Source: Chthoniobacter flavus (GTDB lineage Bacteria > Verrucomicrobiota > Verrucomicrobiia > Chthoniobacterales > JACTMZ01). Taken from it: a DNA stretch of 58,318 nucleotides. Of this stretch, positions 51,849 to 58,318 are shown one piece after another. Below the pieces are notes generated by a model, which was given only the letters and a program-made list of their open reading frames with translations, was not told the DNA's origin and made no database searches. Positions within the stretch are counted from its first letter, which is position 1. Every line of letters starts with the position of its first letter. A program made the position numbers and the translations under genes. The stretch spans positions 1 through 58,318 of the forward strand of contig CAMBUL010000006.1 of NCBI GenBank assembly GCA_945871065.1, given 5' to 3'.

Positions 51849-51925
51849 GGAGCCTTAGCTCAATTGGTTAGAGCGCTGCCCTGTCACGGCAGAGGTTGCG
51901 GGTTCGAGTCCCGTAGGCTCCGCCA
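51849..51925 (+). tRNA. tRNA-Asp (GTC)
   Basis: 77-nt cloverleaf GGAGCCT...AGGCTCCGCCA, anticodon arm CTGCC-CTGTCAC-GGCAG. Confidence 0.97.
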
Positions 51926-52020
51926 TCGCATGTCACGCGAGGGCAGGTAGTTGTGGCGGAAATGGCGGTTTGGTTTCATGCAAAATTTCATACCAACCGT
52001 TGACACCACCGCGATGCCAT

Positions 52021-53208
52021 ATGCATCGCGTCCACGTCGTAGGCCACGGATCGTCTGAGGTCAGGATCTATCCTTTGCGCCGCAAACGCTCGCGCTACCG
52101 CTCCTACCAAGTGCGCTGGTATGAGCTGGGTGAGAAGCAGACCAAGACACTGGCCGACCCCCAGAAGGCCAAAGCTTACGCCCAGCAGGTCCATATTTCG
52201 CTGCTCAACGGCGCCCGTGCATCGGAGATTACGCCTCTGGACATCAGTGTCCTGCGGGACGCGGAGTCCATCGCGGCAAAGTTCGGAGTTTCCCTGCCGT
52301 TTGCCATTCGTGAATGGGCCGATACGCGGCAGGCACTGCTCGGCACGCCCATGGTCCCCAAGGCGAGTTGCATGGCACAATTGCTCAAGGAGCTGACCAC
52401 GGTCAATGCGCAGGCTGCAGCCAAGGAATACATCAGGCTGAAGGAAGAGTCGGGGTTGTCATCCCGCCACATCCAGACGGTGCGGCAGCTGTTGACCGGT
52501 TTCGGCCGGAGTTTCGCCGCAGAACAATTGCACGAAATTCCCGTGCAGGCACTGCGGCGATTCATTGACGGGATCAGGGGCAGTGCCCGGACGAAGAACA
52601 ACTTCATCACGTGCTTGCGGACGTTCTTCCTCTGGGCGCAGAAACAGTCCTATCTGCGGCAGGACCGGCCGACCGCGGCAGCTGGTCTGGACAAGAAGCG
52701 CGAGGCTTATGTGGCTCCGCAGATTTTCACGCCGGAGGAAATGCGCCAGCTGTTGGGAAGTTCCGAGGCGGACATGGTTCCTTATCTTGCCATCGCCGCT
52801 TTTGCGGGGCTTCGCAGCTCCGAGATCGGTCGCTTGGATTGGTCGGCGGTGGATTTCGCCTCCGGTTACATCAAGGTTTCTGGGGAGATAACCAAAACGC
52901 AGCAGCGGCGTCTTGTCCCGATCCTCCCGAACCTTCGTGCGTGGCTCTTGCCGCACCTGAAGGGATCCGGCGGCGTGACCTTTGCCACTTACCGCAAGGC
53001 GCTCACGAGGTGTGGTCGCGCGGCGGGCGTTGCCTGGAAGTCGAACGCCTTGCGACACAGTTTTGGAAGCTACCGGCTGGCCGAAGTGCAGGATGCCGCC
53101 AAGGTCAGTCTGGAAATGGGCAACTCCCCGCAGATGCTCTTCAAGCACTACCGTGAGCTCGTCACTCCGGCACAGGCGCACGAGTGGTTTTCGATTTTCC
53201 CGCCGTGA
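52021..53208 (+). CDS. Tyrosine recombinase/integrase
   Basis: FAGLRSSEI (R), TKT (K), NALRHSF (xxxR), MGNS, KHY (catalytic Tyr). Confidence 0.93.
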   Translation: MHRVHVVGHGSSEVRIYPLRRKRSRYRSYQVRWYELGEKQTKTLADPQKAKAYAQQVHISLLNGARASEITPLDISVLRDAESIAAKFGVSLPFAIREWADTRQALLGTPMVPKASCMAQLLKELTTVNAQAAAKEYIRLKEESGLSSRHIQTVRQLLTGFGRSFAAEQLHEIPVQALRRFIDGIRGSARTKNNFITCLRTFFLWAQKQSYLRQDRPTAAAGLDKKREAYVAPQIFTPEEMRQLLGSSEADMVPYLAIAAFAGLRSSEIGRLDWSAVDFASGYIKVSGEITKTQQRRLVPILPNLRAWLLPHLKGSGGVTFATYRKALTRCGRAAGVAWKSNALRHSFGSYRLAEVQDAAKVSLEMGNSPQMLFKHYRELVTPAQAHEWFSIFPP

Positions 53209-53710
53209 CCGGCTGCGATGGTGTGGTGCGCTTGGCTTGGCCCTTGGGTTGCGGCGTTGGCGCCGGCGCGCCCATCGCTTTGGCGATCGTTTCGTGGCAT
53301 TTGGTCAGTCCCGCAATTGCGGGGCCCAGGCATCGCAGCAGGGTATCGTATTCCTGGCGAGTCGGCTCCGGTCCGCCTTCCAGAACCTCGAGTATTCTTT
53401 CGTCAATCTCCTCCAGCAGGCAGGTGATTTCCCAAAGTGCCACCCCGCGATCTCCCACCACCGCGGCCGTGCTGCGGCTGTAGTATTTTCGAACGATAAA
53501 ACACGAATCCCTCATGTGATCGCTGCTGCGACGTGTTCGCATCAATCGCATCCAGCGGACCATCTTCGGCGTGCACTCGTAGCGGTATTGGCCGCCTGCG
53601 GTCAGGATTCGCTCTCCCGGAAGGGCGTTCTTCTGGGCCAAACGGGCGATGTGCATGCGCGAGTATCCGCTGCGCCGGGCGATTTCCGGACAGGTCAGTA
53701 GTTTCGGCAT
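53162..53710 (-). CDS. Hypothetical protein with N-terminal HTH (candidate regulator)
   Basis: LLT..EIARRSGYSRMHIARL....LPG; divergent from the xis-like gene. Confidence 0.6.
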   Translation of the reverse strand: MPKLLTCPEIARRSGYSRMHIARLAQKNALPGERILTAGGQYRYECTPKMVRWMRLMRTRRSSDHMRDSCFIVRKYYSRSTAAVVGDRGVALWEITCLLEEIDERILEVLEGGPEPTRQEYDTLLRCLGPAIAGLTKCHETIAKAMGAPAPTPQPKGQAKRTTPSQPVTAGKSKTTRAPVPE

Positions 53711-53764
53711 AACAGTCTAAAAACGTCACATGTAACATTGCAGAGTTGACACGGCAACAGGTGC

Positions 53765-53977
53765 GTGAACTACACGCATTCCACTCAACATCTCGTCAAA
53801 AAAAAGCAACTTGCCTCCCTTCTGGGAGTTTCTCCCCGAACGGTCGACCAATGGGTCCATCGGCGGTGGATTTCCGTCATTGCCCCGACGGCCCGTCTGC
53901 ACCTCTTTGATCCCGCGGAAGTCCGCGAGGCGCTCAAGAGCCGCTTCGGGATCAAAGCACAGGAGGTGCGGAAGTGA
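53765..53977 (+). CDS. Excisionase/AlpA-like HTH protein
   Basis: KKQLA..LGVSPRTV..W......I......LFD..EV. Confidence 0.75.
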   Translation: MNYTHSTQHLVKKKQLASLLGVSPRTVDQWVHRRWISVIAPTARLHLFDPAEVREALKSRFGIKAQEVRK

Positions 53978-54411
53978 GGGACCACGCCTTTTTTGAAAAT
54001 GGCCAGCGGATCGGGGTCGAGTTTCGGCACCCGATTGATGAATTTGAGCCGGAGCCGGAGGTGGACGGATATTCCGTAGATCTCTACGGGCTGGTCGAGA
54101 AAGTGGCTTGCAGCTTTCTCACCGGCGATCCGAATATCAATCGCGTTGCCTGGAAATTCCTGCTCGGCAAGCAGTCCTGTTCCATGCGCGACTATGCCCG
54201 CCGCGCGGGTTGCTCGGTGGCGGCGATCTCCAAGCAGATCAACCGGATAGCCCGGCTCTTTGCCATGCCGCTGCACAATCCGCATCTGCGCGTGGCCAGG
54301 CGGGAGATCACCAGAGTCTCATGGAGAAAGCGAAGGCAACGGGCCGGTGGCTGCCGGCCCGCTGCCCGGGAGCTTGTAGGGGAATCCACCGATCAAGGAG
54401 GTCGCCCATGA
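53974..54411 (+). CDS. Hypothetical HTH-containing protein
   Basis: SMRDYARRAGCSVAAISKQ; 4-bp overlaps on both sides. Confidence 0.6.
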   Translation: MRDHAFFENGQRIGVEFRHPIDEFEPEPEVDGYSVDLYGLVEKVACSFLTGDPNINRVAWKFLLGKQSCSMRDYARRAGCSVAAISKQINRIARLFAMPLHNPHLRVARREITRVSWRKRRQRAGGCRPAARELVGESTDQGGRP

Positions 54412-54740
54412 GGAAGCTCCGTGTCAACGATTCGTCGCAGCCGGTGCTGCGGGTGTGCCGTGATAGGTGCCGCGTGCGAGCGGAAGCCGAACTACTCGGG
54501 GAAATGGAAACCATCCTCGAGGAGCTTCGCCAAGGTCCTCCTCCGTTCTCGGTTTCGTTGCGCGAGCCGGGGCGCTTTGTCTCCTTCGTCCTTCTGCCCG
54601 ACGAAGCGGAGAGCGACGGGTGCCAATGGGTGATGATCACCGCCGAGCCCGAGACCCAAGGAGCCGCGGATAGCGTTCTCGCCGCCTCCCAAGCCTGCAT
54701 ACGCGACCATTTGCGTGCGAGGGGAAAGGGGGGGCGATGA
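54408..54740 (+). CDS. Hypothetical protein
   Basis: ATGA coupling at both ends; GGAGG upstream of the ATG at 54408. Confidence 0.55.
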   Translation: MRKLRVNDSSQPVLRVCRDRCRVRAEAELLGEMETILEELRQGPPPFSVSLREPGRFVSFVLLPDEAESDGCQWVMITAEPETQGAADSVLAASQACIRDHLRARGKGGR

Positions 54741-55660
54741 TGCCCGGCGCGCCGCGGCTTGTCCGCGAACTGCTGGGCGCTTGCCCCACGGCGGGAAACG
54801 GCGTCCACGCCTGGATATTCCAGTGTGCCCTTGCGCTGCGCCGTGCCGGCTACAGCGAGGGCGAGATGGCGGAAATGATCGAAGGAGCCGCGGTCAACTG
54901 CGGCCGCGCACTGGAAGCGCATGAGATTCCCGACGCCATCAAAAACTCGGGTTCAAGGTCGGCACCGTCGGGCACTTCGGCGCGCGGAGGGGGCATGCCA
55001 CCCCCGCGCGCCGCCCGCTGGCCGGCTGCGGCGAGCGGCCGTATCCAAGAGATCATCCGGAGTCGCGAGGCACGGAGTCTCTACGACCTCTGGGAGGCCT
55101 CGCCGGTCCGTCTCGAAGATCATGCTGCCGAACATCTGATCGACAGACTTTTTCCCGGCAATCCCCTGCTGTGTTGCGGTCGCTCCCACGGCCAGTGCGA
55201 AACCACTCCCCGGGAGGAGTGGCGCGGGCAGTTGCGCAAGCTCCAATTCATCGTTCCCAACCCGATGGCTGCCCTTCGAGGCACACGCAAGTCCGACGGG
55301 CAGCCTTCACCGCGGGCCCTGGACAACACCGGCCCGCGGCGCTTCTTGGTCATCGAATTCGACGACAATCTTGGCGAGGACTCGCAAGCAGCCCGGTTGT
55401 GGCACCTCAATTCCCTCAGCCCCCTGGTGCTTGCCGTCCATAGCGGAGGCAAGTCGTTGCACGGATGGTTTTGCACGGTCGGCGACGCCGAATCCGCTTG
55501 GCTCAAGTTCATGCGCTACGCGGTCAGTCTCGGGGCTGATCCTGCCACGTGGACTCGTTGCCAATTTGTCCGGCTTCCCGACGGAATGCGCCGTCCCAAA
55601 GACAAGGCTCCCATCCGCCAGGTCGTCTACTTTTTCAACCCGGAGGCGCTGCCATGTTGA
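54737..55660 (+). CDS. AEP-superfamily primase-like protein
   Basis: hhhEFDD, HSGGKSLHGWF, D.......FVRLP motifs; N-terminal PriCT-like helical segment. Confidence 0.7.
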   Translation: MMPGAPRLVRELLGACPTAGNGVHAWIFQCALALRRAGYSEGEMAEMIEGAAVNCGRALEAHEIPDAIKNSGSRSAPSGTSARGGGMPPPRAARWPAAASGRIQEIIRSREARSLYDLWEASPVRLEDHAAEHLIDRLFPGNPLLCCGRSHGQCETTPREEWRGQLRKLQFIVPNPMAALRGTRKSDGQPSPRALDNTGPRRFLVIEFDDNLGEDSQAARLWHLNSLSPLVLAVHSGGKSLHGWFCTVGDAESAWLKFMRYAVSLGADPATWTRCQFVRLPDGMRRPKDKAPIRQVVYFFNPEALPC

Positions 55661-56913
55661 ACGAAGCCGCAATTCCAGAGCCTGCGGACTCCGCTCCACC
55701 GGTCGCTTCGCCCGAGATGCTCGACTTCTACGCGATTCCCCTGCCTCCGGAGCAAGATCCCGATGAATTGATCAAGCATCGCTTTCTGTGCCGCGGTGGC
55801 GCCCTGCTCCTCGTCGGTCAGAGCGGTATCGGCAAAAGTTCTTTCACCATCCAGTGTGCCGTTCTTTGGAGCTTGGGGCGTGAGGCTTTCGGTTTGGTGC
55901 CGGTCGGCCCTCTGCGGATCTTGATCGTCCAAGCGGAAAATGATCCGGGCGACATGGCCGAGTTCCGGGATGGCGTCCTCAAGGGGCTCGACCTCAAGGA
56001 TGAAGACTGCAAGGGCAGCGTCATCAAGACAGTCTGTGAGGACAGTCGCACGGGCGCCGCCTTCTGCAGTGATGTGCTCCAACCTCTCCTCGAGCGGGAG
56101 CAATTCGATCTGGTGATTGTCGACCCTGCTTTGGCTTACCTGGGAGGCGACGCTAATCAGCAAAAAGACGTTTCGATGTTTCTCCGGAACTGCCTCAATC
56201 CCGTTCTGCATCGCGCCCGCTGCGGTTTGGTCCTGGTCCACCACACCAACAAGCCGCCCCAGTATCAAAGAAATCAGGAGTGGCAAGCCAACGACTATGC
56301 GTATGCCGGATCAGGGTCTGCCGATTGGGCGAACTGGGCGAGGGCAGTCCTCGTGATCCGCACGCTGGGATCTTTTGATTACTTCGAGCTGCGGGCCGGC
56401 AAGCGCGGAAAACGACTCCGGTGGAAAGATAAGAGCGGAAAGGCCTCAGCTTTCACCAAGCATATCGGCCACTCTCAGACGGGTATCTGTTGGCGCGAGG
56501 TGCCCGATGAGGAGATTCTCTCCGCGCCGGGCATCGTCGACAAAGCGAACTCGAGACTCGGGCCCAAGCCGCCTCCGGTGGACGATTTCATGGCGCTCTT
56601 CCCGCACGATTACAAAAATGACCCGTCCGAGGCCCTGCTATCCGCAGGTCAGATCCAGATCGCCTTCCGTCAGCGGGGGTGGTCCAAGAATCATTACAGC
56701 GGGATGTGCGATAACGCCGTCGCGCAGGGAATTCTGGCGCAAACGTCCGGCGGGGGGAAAGGGGGAAAAGTGCTGAGGGGCCGGCCCGACATGGTCGAAG
56801 CCTACCTTCGCAATAAACAGGAGAAAGGCACCATCCTCGAAAATGTGCCCATTGCCAAACCGCCGAAAAAAAAGAAACGGACCCGGAAATCGAAGTTGTC
56901 CAAGTCATCCTAA
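55654..56913 (+). CDS. RepA-like (AAA_25, SF4) replicative helicase
   Basis: Walker A GQSGIGKS, QAEN, Walker B VIVDP, LVHHTNK, GS..W...AR. Confidence 0.85.
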   Translation: MLNEAAIPEPADSAPPVASPEMLDFYAIPLPPEQDPDELIKHRFLCRGGALLLVGQSGIGKSSFTIQCAVLWSLGREAFGLVPVGPLRILIVQAENDPGDMAEFRDGVLKGLDLKDEDCKGSVIKTVCEDSRTGAAFCSDVLQPLLEREQFDLVIVDPALAYLGGDANQQKDVSMFLRNCLNPVLHRARCGLVLVHHTNKPPQYQRNQEWQANDYAYAGSGSADWANWARAVLVIRTLGSFDYFELRAGKRGKRLRWKDKSGKASAFTKHIGHSQTGICWREVPDEEILSAPGIVDKANSRLGPKPPPVDDFMALFPHDYKNDPSEALLSAGQIQIAFRQRGWSKNHYSGMCDNAVAQGILAQTSGGGKGGKVLRGRPDMVEAYLRNKQEKGTILENVPIAKPPKKKKRTRKSKLSKSS

Positions 56914-57046: not shown

Positions 57047-57360
57047 GCTATTCAGAAAGTGACCTTTCCAAAGGCGCATCGTCACGGGACTGCTCCAGTC
57101 ACTCAGCCATGACAGGCAGGAGGCCATTACGCATGTTCCAGAATTTACGAGAAGCGTTTATCATGCCGCACCGATAAATTCCCCAGCCGGTAATCCGATC
57201 GATCGACTTGGCTTCCTACGGGCGTAATGAATGGCCGGAGATGAACACAAGTTGCTTGCAACTATACTCTTGCGGATATTTCTAGCGAAATTCGGCGCTC
57301 AACTGACCCGGGCGTGCGCCTGACCCTCATCGCAAGCTGTACCCGATCAGGTTGCGCCGT

Positions 57361-57549
57361 CTACTTCCTGCCCTTGTCCAGCGTTGCCACCAAGGCCCGT
57401 AGCCCAAACCCCCTCGGCATATTCCGGGCGATCTCCCAGTTCTGCAGCGTGCGCACAGAAATGCCCAAGTGCTTGGCCGCATCTTCCTGCGTGAACCTGC
57501 GTCTCTCGCGGTAGTCCCTGAGGAGCTTAGCGAATTTCTTCCGTGTCAC
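57361..57549 (-). CDS. XRE/Cro-type HTH regulator
   Basis: L...RE....TQ..AA..LG.SVRTLQNWE..R..P; GTG start at 57549 inferred. Confidence 0.85.
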   Translation of the reverse strand: MTRKKFAKLLRDYRERRRFTQEDAAKHLGISVRTLQNWEIARNMPRGFGLRALVATLDKGRK

Positions 57550-57757
57550 GATGCCACTACGCGATACGCGCATCGGCGAGTCAAGGTCGCACCCTCAATG
57601 CACCCCCAAGGAAATTAGGTTCTGTGCCTTCAACGCGATACCCTTTTGAGATGCGAAAAATGGTGGAAAAAACTGATGGATTCGGTGCGACTCCTGCGAG
57701 AGGCCAAAGGGGATGCAAAAATTCACACCAGACATGTTCGGACTCACGGGGCACGGC

Positions 57758-58309
57758 ATGAGACTTAGAACGATTAGAGGCTACGATTTCGGCGAGGTCA
57801 GCTCGGCCATGCAGAAAGCGATCCGGCGCGGTGAAACTCCATACGCCGGTTACTGGGCCTTGGAGCTGTGGGCCAGTGGCTTTGGCCACTACGTGTGGAA
57901 ACGGCTCCTCACCGTGTCGGCCGAGGATTGCTGGGGCATCATCACCAAGGAGGTCAAAGCGCTGCATGAGTCGTACGCGATGATCAACGCGAACCTTTCC
58001 GGTCGCCGTGCCCGTGGCCGCATCTTCATTTCCAAAGCGGTGATCCTGCTTTGCGCGGCCAAGAAGAGCCGCGATGCCGACCACTTGCAGAACTTCGTTT
58101 ACGACGAAATGCGCGGCATTGATCCGGATACGCTGGCCGATGAACTGCGCAGCGCGCCGGAATACGTGTCGGTTCCCGACTATGCCTTCGATTGCCACAC
58201 GCGCCGCGGCAAGTCGATGGGTAAGACCAAAGCGGACTTCTTCAAGGCCGAGCAGGCGGCGCTGGTGCCGCTGGAGCAAGGGCTCTTTGATCATCTGGTT
58301 GCTGGGTAG
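57758..58309 (+). CDS. Stand-alone RarA/MgsA C-terminal-like domain protein
   Basis: YD....SAMQKAIR.G....A.YW..........VWKRL....AEDC resembles RarA YD.ISA..KS.RGSD..AALYW...RRL...A.EDIG; no Walker A/B. Confidence 0.6.
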   Translation: MRLRTIRGYDFGEVSSAMQKAIRRGETPYAGYWALELWASGFGHYVWKRLLTVSAEDCWGIITKEVKALHESYAMINANLSGRRARGRIFISKAVILLCAAKKSRDADHLQNFVYDEMRGIDPDTLADELRSAPEYVSVPDYAFDCHTRRGKSMGKTKADFFKAEQAALVPLEQGLFDHLVAG

Positions 58310-58318
58310 CTGAGAACT

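Follow-up and report, generated by a model that had tools for sequence, protein, structure and literature searches.

A stand-alone homologue of the RarA/MgsA C-terminal domain, from a largely viral protein family, in a repeated cassette of Chthoniobacter flavus

The DNA analysed here (the window) is the whole of contig CAMBUL010000006.1 in the Chthoniobacter flavus assembly GCA_945871065.1, 58,318 bases long; it is contig C6 of this genome (G000), whose assembly is 95% complete. At its right-hand end, on a small integrative element, lies a gene (hereafter the target) whose product is confirmed as a stand-alone homologue of the RarA/MgsA C-terminal domain, encoded without an ATPase module. The target and its neighbour are arranged as follows.

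57713 to 58309, plus strand: target gene, an open reading frame (ORF) of 198 amino acids (aa) for a stand-alone protein of the MgsA_C fold, member of phrog_16866
57361 to 57573, minus strand: XRE-family helix-turn-helix (HTH) gene, 70 aa, with an HTH_31 domain, facing away from the target and a candidate for the cassette's repressor
57347 to 58318, no strand assigned: repeated cassette of XRE gene plus target, inside which the contig ends, 9 nucleotides (nt) after the target

A sequence-only reading of this stretch had described a protein of 183 aa, and a product of that length is indeed obtained from an inner ATG at 57758. However, the 198-aa start is preferred in this lineage, because the 15 codons before the inner ATG and an AAAGGGG ribosome-binding site are conserved in the aligned relatives, where the changes are synonymous. 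In most of the distant homologues the family alignment places the start near M16. The motifs quoted by the earlier reading are all present in the translation, which contains SSAMQKAIRRG, AGYWAL, KRLL, SAED, KKSRDADH and PDYAFDCHTRRGK. Scans with family profiles gave no AAA+ match in the target ORF or upstream of it, where an intergenic region is followed by the divergent XRE gene. The NCBIfam RarA model scores 16.6 bits on the target, against a cut-off of 570, and PADLOC assigned no defence-system family to it.

Taken alone, the target matches Pfam family PF12002 (MgsA_C) at E 0.0016 and 18.8 bits, below the 27-bit gathering cut-off, over profile positions 8–86 of 167. Relatives exceed this cut-off: PF12002 was found in 22 of the 120 homologues among the matches listed, and P0227 scores 49.6 bits. 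As a single query against PDB sequences, the target retrieved 3BGE (E 6e-4) and 3PVS (E 7e-3). A family profile, made from an alignment of 52 members, retrieved seven PDB sequences at E ≤ 1, six of which were RarA/MgsA C-domain structures with E-values of 2.9e-9 to 2.3e-6, namely 3CTD (2.9e-9), followed by 2QW6, 3BGE, 2R9G, 3PVS (9.2e-7) and 8G28 (2.3e-6). When the family was aligned with the host's own RarA by hhalign, the probability was 88% (E 3.1e-6), with 26% identity over 88 aligned columns of the C-domain.

The predicted structure points the same way. The AlphaFold2 model of the target is all-helical (predicted local distance difference test, pLDDT, 85.9; predicted template modelling score, pTM, 0.66), and its ten best Foldseek matches were all chains of RarA/MgsA C-fragment entries. 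Superposition with VIA-align on six RarA C-domain entries gave Z-scores of 14.2–16.1 and root-mean-square deviations (rmsd) of 1.5–2.5 Å over 86–113 residues, at 20–26% identity and limited to model residues 16–138; the runners-up were clamp-loader collar domains, with Z-scores of 7–9.5. The second half of MgsA_C (profile positions ~87–167) was not matched by sequence profiles, and the best structural alignments end at residue 138; one Foldseek alignment covers 180 columns, with a TM score of 0.55. The tail carries a motif, D-x-H-T-x-x-G-[KR]-x-x-G-K-T...F-x-x-E, that is specific to the family. The resemblance to RarA exceeds chance, and the match to MgsA_C that the sequence-only reading anticipated was found by family profile and by fold. 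Its suggestion of a metal-binding fold was supported by nothing tested.

The target is not a piece of the host's rarA. G000 has a separate, full-length rarA gene on contig C76 (446 aa; MgsA_C 214.7 bits), and three target frames in this genome are intact at 198 aa. The ratio of nonsynonymous to synonymous substitution rates (dN/dS) was 0.02–0.09 in all 36 pairs of intact target copies and close relatives. These low values include pairs of copies that lack the glycosyltransferase gene found beside many relatives (see below) and that share one XRE junction. This transferase-less arrangement, with an identical XRE junction, is common to at least 10 loci, with synonymous divergence (dS) of up to ~0.6–0.7. 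Given the age of the arrangement and the low dN/dS, the target protein therefore functions without an adjacent transferase.

These data bear directly on the suspicion that the target is an inert remnant, left over from decayed prophages or from a rarA fragment and kept merely as a repeat. Such a suspicion might arise from the several copies at island edges, the truncated copy on contig C49, the truncated fragments fused to unrelated ORFs in databases, and the break of the contig at the cassette. It is already contradicted by the selection data, that is, by three intact frames of 198 aa and uniformly low dN/dS, and further by the intact, separate host rarA and by the conservation of the leader and ribosome-binding site; we consider it highly improbable. 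Decay from rarA, which the sequence-only reading had itself named as the case that would undo its proposal, is ruled out by the full-length host gene and the dN/dS values, and the family comprises 1464 homologues of 108–347 aa with conserved neighbours.

The family to which the target belongs is widespread and mostly viral. The target matches phrog_16866, to which no function is assigned, at E 4e-62 and 210 bits, with residues 33–196 on profile positions 1–159 of 165. Matching representative clusters numbered 1503 at E ≤ 1e-3. The 120 homologues among the matches listed are 166–214 aa long, and many of them are named 'RarA' by one source. Matches were found in 62 phage records (56 Microbacterium, 5 Arthrobacter and 1 unnamed); all 30 phage homologues among the matches listed are annotated 'AAA-ATPase', and they share ~45% identity with the target over 92% of the length. 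This label is a misnomer for members of phrog_16866, because they have no ATPase module. At least 538 IMG/VR stretches encode a relative, and the atlas clusters of the family are 55–88% viral. In a sample of the host phylum the distribution is sporadic, with a match in 5 of 201 genomes, G000 included. Searches of the literature found no paper on a stand-alone MgsA_C protein.

Longer homologues are mostly tandem two-copy proteins of 320–425 aa, and an AAA Pfam domain was present in none of 46 longer homologues. The tandem proteins (P0165, P0183, P0125, P0156 and ~35 more) form a sub-family of their own, of ~406 aa and without a Pfam match. Two natural fusions join the target to ParB: in P0271 a whole ParB-like protein is joined to target residues 18–196, and in P0250 ParB_N is joined to the C-terminal half. 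Public gene calls also contain fragments of the target, many of them cut off around residues 107–141, that are fused to unrelated ORFs (P0272, P0273, P0274, P0279, P0308, P0313, P0121). At island edges, breaks seem to fall repeatedly within the target gene.

The gene neighbourhoods of relatives were compared after gene calling (codon model trained on G000) and clustering of the neighbours, whose cluster representatives were scanned against Pfam and PHROGs. On Verrucomicrobial phage-type contigs the canonical order runs leftward through the terminase large subunit, the terminase small subunit, sometimes DUF6933, and XRE. Rightward it runs through a ParB-like gene, a TAGT-like GT-A transferase with an invariant DDD motif, the target, a small ORF, DUF6011, an ATP-dependent DNA ligase, RadC and a GATase-like gene, beyond which lie two small ORFs, a 216-aa clamp-loader-like AAA+ protein (c8) and a classic AAA gene. 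In canonical phage contexts the target stop codon shares the sequence ATGA with the start codon of a gene for a 142-aa HTH_17 protein (L009:6594-7022; likewise in L016, L017 and L090-L093). The HTH_17 gene is missing after the target copies of G000, whose last codons differ (…VAG vs …VDA).

Forward-frame searches with hidden Markov models (HMMs) gave the following counts for the transferase and the ParB-like gene.

Close IMG/VR loci: 80 eligible, transferase directly upstream in 69, ParB-like gene within 2.5 kb in 76
Bacterial-genome loci: 64 eligible, transferase directly upstream in 24, ParB-like gene within 2.5 kb in 22
Distant IMG/VR loci: 30 eligible, transferase directly upstream in 18, ParB-like gene within 2.5 kb in 3

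The same forward-frame search led us to reject the minus-strand ORFs of cluster c12 as real genes, since they are shadows of the transferase frame.

The distant phage loci were seeded with P0193, have GC contents of 0.30–0.59 and differ in their other neighbours. In 29 of 32 of these loci the transferase cluster lies at most two genes upstream of the target (or of the target position, where the gene caller had missed it), and two of the three loci lacking the cluster end short upstream. Its company there consists of ATP-grasp, decarboxylase (pyridoxal phosphate-dependent, PLP), GNAT, UDP-galactopyranose mutase and UDP-glucose dehydrogenase genes; terminase and portal genes come next. In Microbacterium phage Jayden the order is ParB-like nuclease, glycosyltransferase, UDP-glucose dehydrogenase and target homologue (gp86). 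The transferase is the sole neighbour common to all three lineages. No TET/JBP dioxygenase was found among the scanned neighbours of relatives, and a scan of viral contigs with another distant member, P0175, gave no pattern match. A predicted complex of the L090 transferase with its cognate target scored 0.18 against a mark of 0.32, and was counted neither for nor against an interaction.

The same operons suggest another partner. The target might serve as a collar, acting in trans, for the 216-aa AAA+ protein c8, so that the two together would form a split RarA-like or clamp-loader-like machine, an oligomeric ATPase acting on phage replication intermediates. The architecture of c8 is suggestive, with a clamp-loader-clade N-terminus and AAA core (domains I and II) and no third domain (Pfam AAA and RuvB_N; PHROG clamp loader). 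Apart from c8 itself, the G000 gene that matches it best is the host rarA (by tblastn; HMM E 4.5e-11, next-best 5.8e-7; 33% identity over 85 aa). The RarA-type structure 8G28, a chain of 426 residues, matches c8 residues 16–134 at E 4.3e-6, ranked under chance matches to TALE repeats and short P-loop matches; the TALE-repeat matches were dismissed, being confined to residues 70–103 with no stretch that passes alone in phmmer. Where the flank suffices, a c8 gene of the same strand is found no more than 6 kb downstream in 23 of 32 IMG/VR loci and 15 of 33 genome loci. It is present in G000 (C43:21518-22165), as well as in L015 (4925-5572), and the 216 aa of c8 with 183 aa of the target come near the 446 aa of host RarA. 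However, the two genes are six to eight genes apart, and among the matches listed none of c8 falls in the Microbacterium or Arthrobacter phages, Jayden having no other annotated AAA+ gene. Moreover, c8 was absent from all three distant loci whose downstream flank reaches 5.9 kb or more, G000 holds three intact and one truncated target copies against a single c8, and the lack of an AAA Pfam domain in the 46 longer homologues also counts against such a pairing. We regard a split machine as unlikely.

Upstream of the window's target, the divergent region contains the following elements.

57574 to 57712, no strand assigned: divergent intergenic region, holding the second ACGCGATAC and a conserved leader of ~60 nt
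57559 to 57567, plus strand: first ACGCGATAC copy, coding, inside XRE codons 2-5
57633 to 57641: second ACGCGATAC copy, intergenic, between the XRE gene and the target
57654 to 57712: conserved leader of ~60 nt before the target, AAAATGGTG ... AAAACTGATGGATTC ... CTGCGAGAGGCCAAAGGGG, ending with AAAGGGG before the ATG (alignment and motif scan)

The divergence from a small XRE gene, as the sequence-only reading had it, is borne out. HTH_31 matches at E 4.5e-10 and 40.1 bits against a cut-off of 27, HTH_3 scores 34.3 bits, and the two start codons lie on opposite strands, 139 nt apart. The same small HTH protein recurs in relatives, adjoining the target or two genes away. The earlier reading also placed ACGCGATAC twice between the genes; both copies exist and the second is intergenic, but the first lies within the XRE coding sequence. 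The copies are 74 nt apart and are the only ones in the window, where the expected count is 0.21; two copies were reached in 1 of 100 shuffles. Short repeats of 8–10 nt are common near the XRE gene and the target, with three direct-repeat families in 421 nt. In an alignment of 19 loci, the XRE-adjacent intergenic region is shared in 11 rows and absent from the others; among those 11, the second copy is exact in seven, reads AGCGCGATAC (one base off) in three and is changed in C100. The second ACGCGATAC is a reasonable candidate for an XRE operator and no more than that, and the XRE protein may control the cassette.

The conserved leader may serve as a promoter specific to the phage or else control translation. 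Diverged copies of it precede several other genes of the same phage-type operon (G000 C83:8084-8151 and C43:21051-21105; L017 near 5928 and 7456; L009 8116-8183 and 9505-9572). A scan of 57300–58318 found no sigma-70 consensus promoter. Assembled RNA-library contigs overlap the XRE gene (57233–57511, identical) and the 5' part of the target (with differences), an overlap that does not establish transcription.

The cassette ends an integrative island whose recognisable genes are these.

51849 to 51925, plus strand: tRNA-Asp gene, left border of the island (ARAGORN)
51970 to 53208, plus strand: tyrosine integrase of the island (Phage_integrase, E 5.5e-11)
54737 to 55660, plus strand: ORF of 307 aa with a faint match to PriCT_1 (primase C-terminal), E 0.13, below cut-off
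55549 to 56913, plus strand: AAA_25 P-loop protein, RepA/primase-helicase-like (AAA_25, E 1.6e-21; PHROG primase/helicase families)

A small HTH ORF also lies between the tRNA-Asp/integrase end and the 307-aa ORF. With an integrase by a tRNA gene and a replication gene of its own, the island has the P4-like outline of a small, satellite-like integrative element, which agrees with the 'satellite cargo' of the sequence-only reading. Pfam found no terminase or capsid families in the four ORFs between the integrase and replication genes (53162–54740). No direct repeat of the tRNA-Asp 3' end longer than 11 nt was found in the window tail, nor longer than 12 nt in L012, and the far border may lie beyond the contig.

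The cassette is mobile and occurs four times in G000, one copy being truncated. The copy on C54 is 95.7% identical; C6 and C54 stop at an identical base, with their final 55 bases or more in common, and therefore the contig end is an assembly break within a repeat. The copy on C100 (91%) comprises just the leader and the gene, with a convergent PIN/MazE-type pair behind them, and in the copy on C49 (91%; C49:149-723) the target is truncated. Compared with the orthologous island in L012, identity is 98.4% over 5526 nt of the island but only 90.8% over the cassette, which has undergone recombinational exchange. Over window positions 57476–58318, the summed depth of contigs in run X1 climbs from ~24 over the island to 44–191 over the cassette, where the assembly graph is broken into pieces of ~120–250 nt with variant letters. 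This pattern fits many cassette variants in the community. Stretches without coverage, like the higher depth over the target in run X1, point to no more than a sequence present in several copies.

The sequence-only reading saw in the target the first gene of an operon continuing past the window. This does not hold for the window copy, whose contig ends in the repeat shared with C54 and whose counterpart in L012 has a convergent regulator-like ORF and metabolic-looking ORFs behind it, as judged without a family-library scan, and no operon. It does hold for copies of the C54 type, which head a phage operon. The C54 copy marks the left border of a prophage remnant and has aldolase and phosphoribosyltransferase genes beside it, an arrangement also seen in L009 and L013-L015; the remainder of that remnant (RadC, GATase-like, c7, c14, c8 and classic AAA) is found on C75 and C43.

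Other copies have other company. Solitary target copies precede toxin-antitoxin genes: a PIN plus MazE-type pair (G000 C100:882-1537; L003) and the start of a PIN-like ORF after the L010 copy (downstream of 6594). L012 and L019 lie on one public contig, where a second, more diverged target copy (L019) stands ~8 kb downstream of the orthologous island copy; its neighbours differ, with an apparent AbiE-type pair on the opposite strand, as judged without a family scan. In the IMG/VR phage contigs L115 (1-6555) and L118 (1-6555), a related integrase/HTH/helicase island lies between the ParB plus transferase genes and the target. These islands are directly upstream of the target, their helicase shares 65–71% nucleotide identity with that of the window, and in front of the L118 island stands a transferase ORF shortened to 175 aa. 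Insertion of the island seems to occur immediately upstream of the target; as a sign of dependence on a helper phage, this placement is only suggestive.

Taken together, we tentatively favour, at close to an even chance, the explanation that the target is a non-enzymatic, self-associating adaptor for phage DNA modification or replication enzymes. The protein is phage-derived and consists of the helical C-terminal domain (of collar or tetramerisation type) of the RarA/MgsA clamp-loader clade alone, with a family-specific tail. It would self-associate and act, without catalysis, alongside phage DNA enzymes. In clamp loaders, the collar domain (domain III) keeps the subunits together, and RarA/MgsA/WRNIP1 enzymes form homotetramers through their C-terminal domain. 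We infer self-association because of the analogy with RarA and clamp-loader collars and, as a hint only, because of the tandem two-copy forms. The constant partner across the family is the TAGT-like GT-A transferase, presumed to glycosylate DNA, often with a ParB-like protein; in Verrucomicrobial elements, the target is also the first gene of an operon that includes DNA ligase, RadC and a clamp-loader-like AAA+ protein. The window copy has lost its transferase and ParB neighbours and stands directly under an XRE repressor-type gene, in a ~1-kb cassette that recombines between prophage remnants and the tRNA-Asp integrative island.

Several observations weigh against such an adaptor. Adjacency to the transferase may reflect conserved phage synteny instead of a physical or pathway link. 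The transferase is directly upstream in only 24 of the 64 bacterial-genome loci, and therefore the target protein cannot strictly depend on it. G000 has three intact target copies, yet no TAGT-like transferase (two transferase HMMs gave no match at E ≤ 0.01 in the window or in all of G000) and no phage-type ParB at the HMM level. The DNA-modification operon proposed by the sequence-only reading finds backing in the neighbourhoods of relatives, with glycosyltransferase and ParB-like genes, but none in this genome, which is without such a transferase. The tail of the target (residues ~139–198) lies outside the best structural alignments, and model confidence drops to 57 in one 10-residue block. 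Finally, the passages searched of a paper on ParB-dependent dioxygenases (PMC13229309) and of a preprint on viral glycosyltransferases (bioRxiv 10.1101/2023.12.21.572611) do not mention an MgsA_C-type protein.

An alternative explanation might be that the target interferes with the host. A free collar could bind the partners of the RarA C-domain, or join oligomers of host RarA or of the clamp loader, and, while a phage or satellite replicates, thereby block or hijack the processing of host forks and gaps. The polar positions that mark MgsA_C are kept in the target (S-A-x-Q-K-x-x-R-R, A-E-D and K-S-R), a host RarA exists as a possible object, strong selection persists without the transferase, and the target is the first gene under the XRE switch. 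In contrast, its identity to the host RarA C-domain is only 26% (88 columns; hhalign 88%), the family motifs are constant across phages of Verrucomicrobiota, Actinobacteria and low-GC lineages without tracking each host, and the tight linkage to the glycosyltransferase is left unexplained. We consider interference quite unlikely. Its dominant-negative form, in which the target would mimic host RarA as the sequence-only reading had speculated, found no support, given the 26% identity and the conservation in phages of very different hosts.

The adaptor explanation can be sharpened into a proposal that we regard as doubtful. MgsA_C-only proteins might be the third, non-catalytic component of phage post-replicative DNA glycosylation, next to the ParB-like protein and the TAGT-like transferase, in which a RarA-type collar would use its RarA-type surface to bring the enzymes to, or keep them on, newly replicated or packaging-ready DNA. 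Copies without the transferase, the window copy among them, would then have been re-used with other DNA enzymes, for instance to complete a split RarA-like ATPase by supplying its collar in trans. The probability left over by the adaptor and its rivals we reserve for functions that we have not thought of.

Few parts of RarA, a near-universal protein of genome maintenance, are as conserved and as little understood as its C-terminal domain. A large viral family keeps this domain alone under strong selection, which shows that the RarA C-domain is functional in its own right. The family's recurrent linkage to a glycosyltransferase and a ParB-like gene offers a concrete and testable place to seek that function. 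Our results also correct a widespread misannotation, as 'AAA-ATPase' in phage records and as 'RarA' in metagenome annotation.

Compared to known systems, the target is closest to the C-domain of RarA/MgsA/WRNIP1 (PF12002; 3PVS, 3BGE, 2R9G, 2QW6, 3CTD, 8G28), with which it shares the same helical fold over residues 16–138 and the conserved motif positions in helices 1, 3 and 5. Its tail begins with VPDYAFDCH, similar to the VPEHLRDKH that host RarA has at the corresponding position. It differs from RarA in that it has no AAA+ ATPase and no lid domain, is encoded alone, scores below the Pfam cut-off and has its own tail motif; it is also phage-borne, whereas RarA is a housekeeping protein. Clamp-loader collars (RFC, T4 gp44 and the E. 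coli gamma complex) show the same general helical arrangement, with Z-scores of 7–9.5 over 83–91 residues. However, this match is much weaker than that to RarA, such Z-scores are common for helical bundles, and the target comes without a clamp-loader ATPase.

Phage DNA-modification pathways typically keep company with ParB-like, DNA-type glycosyltransferase, GATase-like and terminase classes, according to PMC13229309 and bioRxiv 10.1101/2023.12.21.572611. Relatives of the target resemble such ParB-assisted hypermodification clusters in sitting with ParB-like, glycosyltransferase, GATase-like and terminase genes. In contrast, the 'AAA' label in these papers denotes true AAA Pfam families, and the window has none of the cluster enzymes. 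With the phrog_16866 genes of Microbacterium and Arthrobacter phages, such as Jayden gp86, the match is full-length; the window differs from those loci in lacking the transferase and ParB genes and in having the XRE gene as direct neighbour. The target belongs to the MgsA_C fold and to phrog_16866, and is not a RarA enzyme. Within this known family the window copy is an ordinary member, carried in a mobile, recombining cassette.

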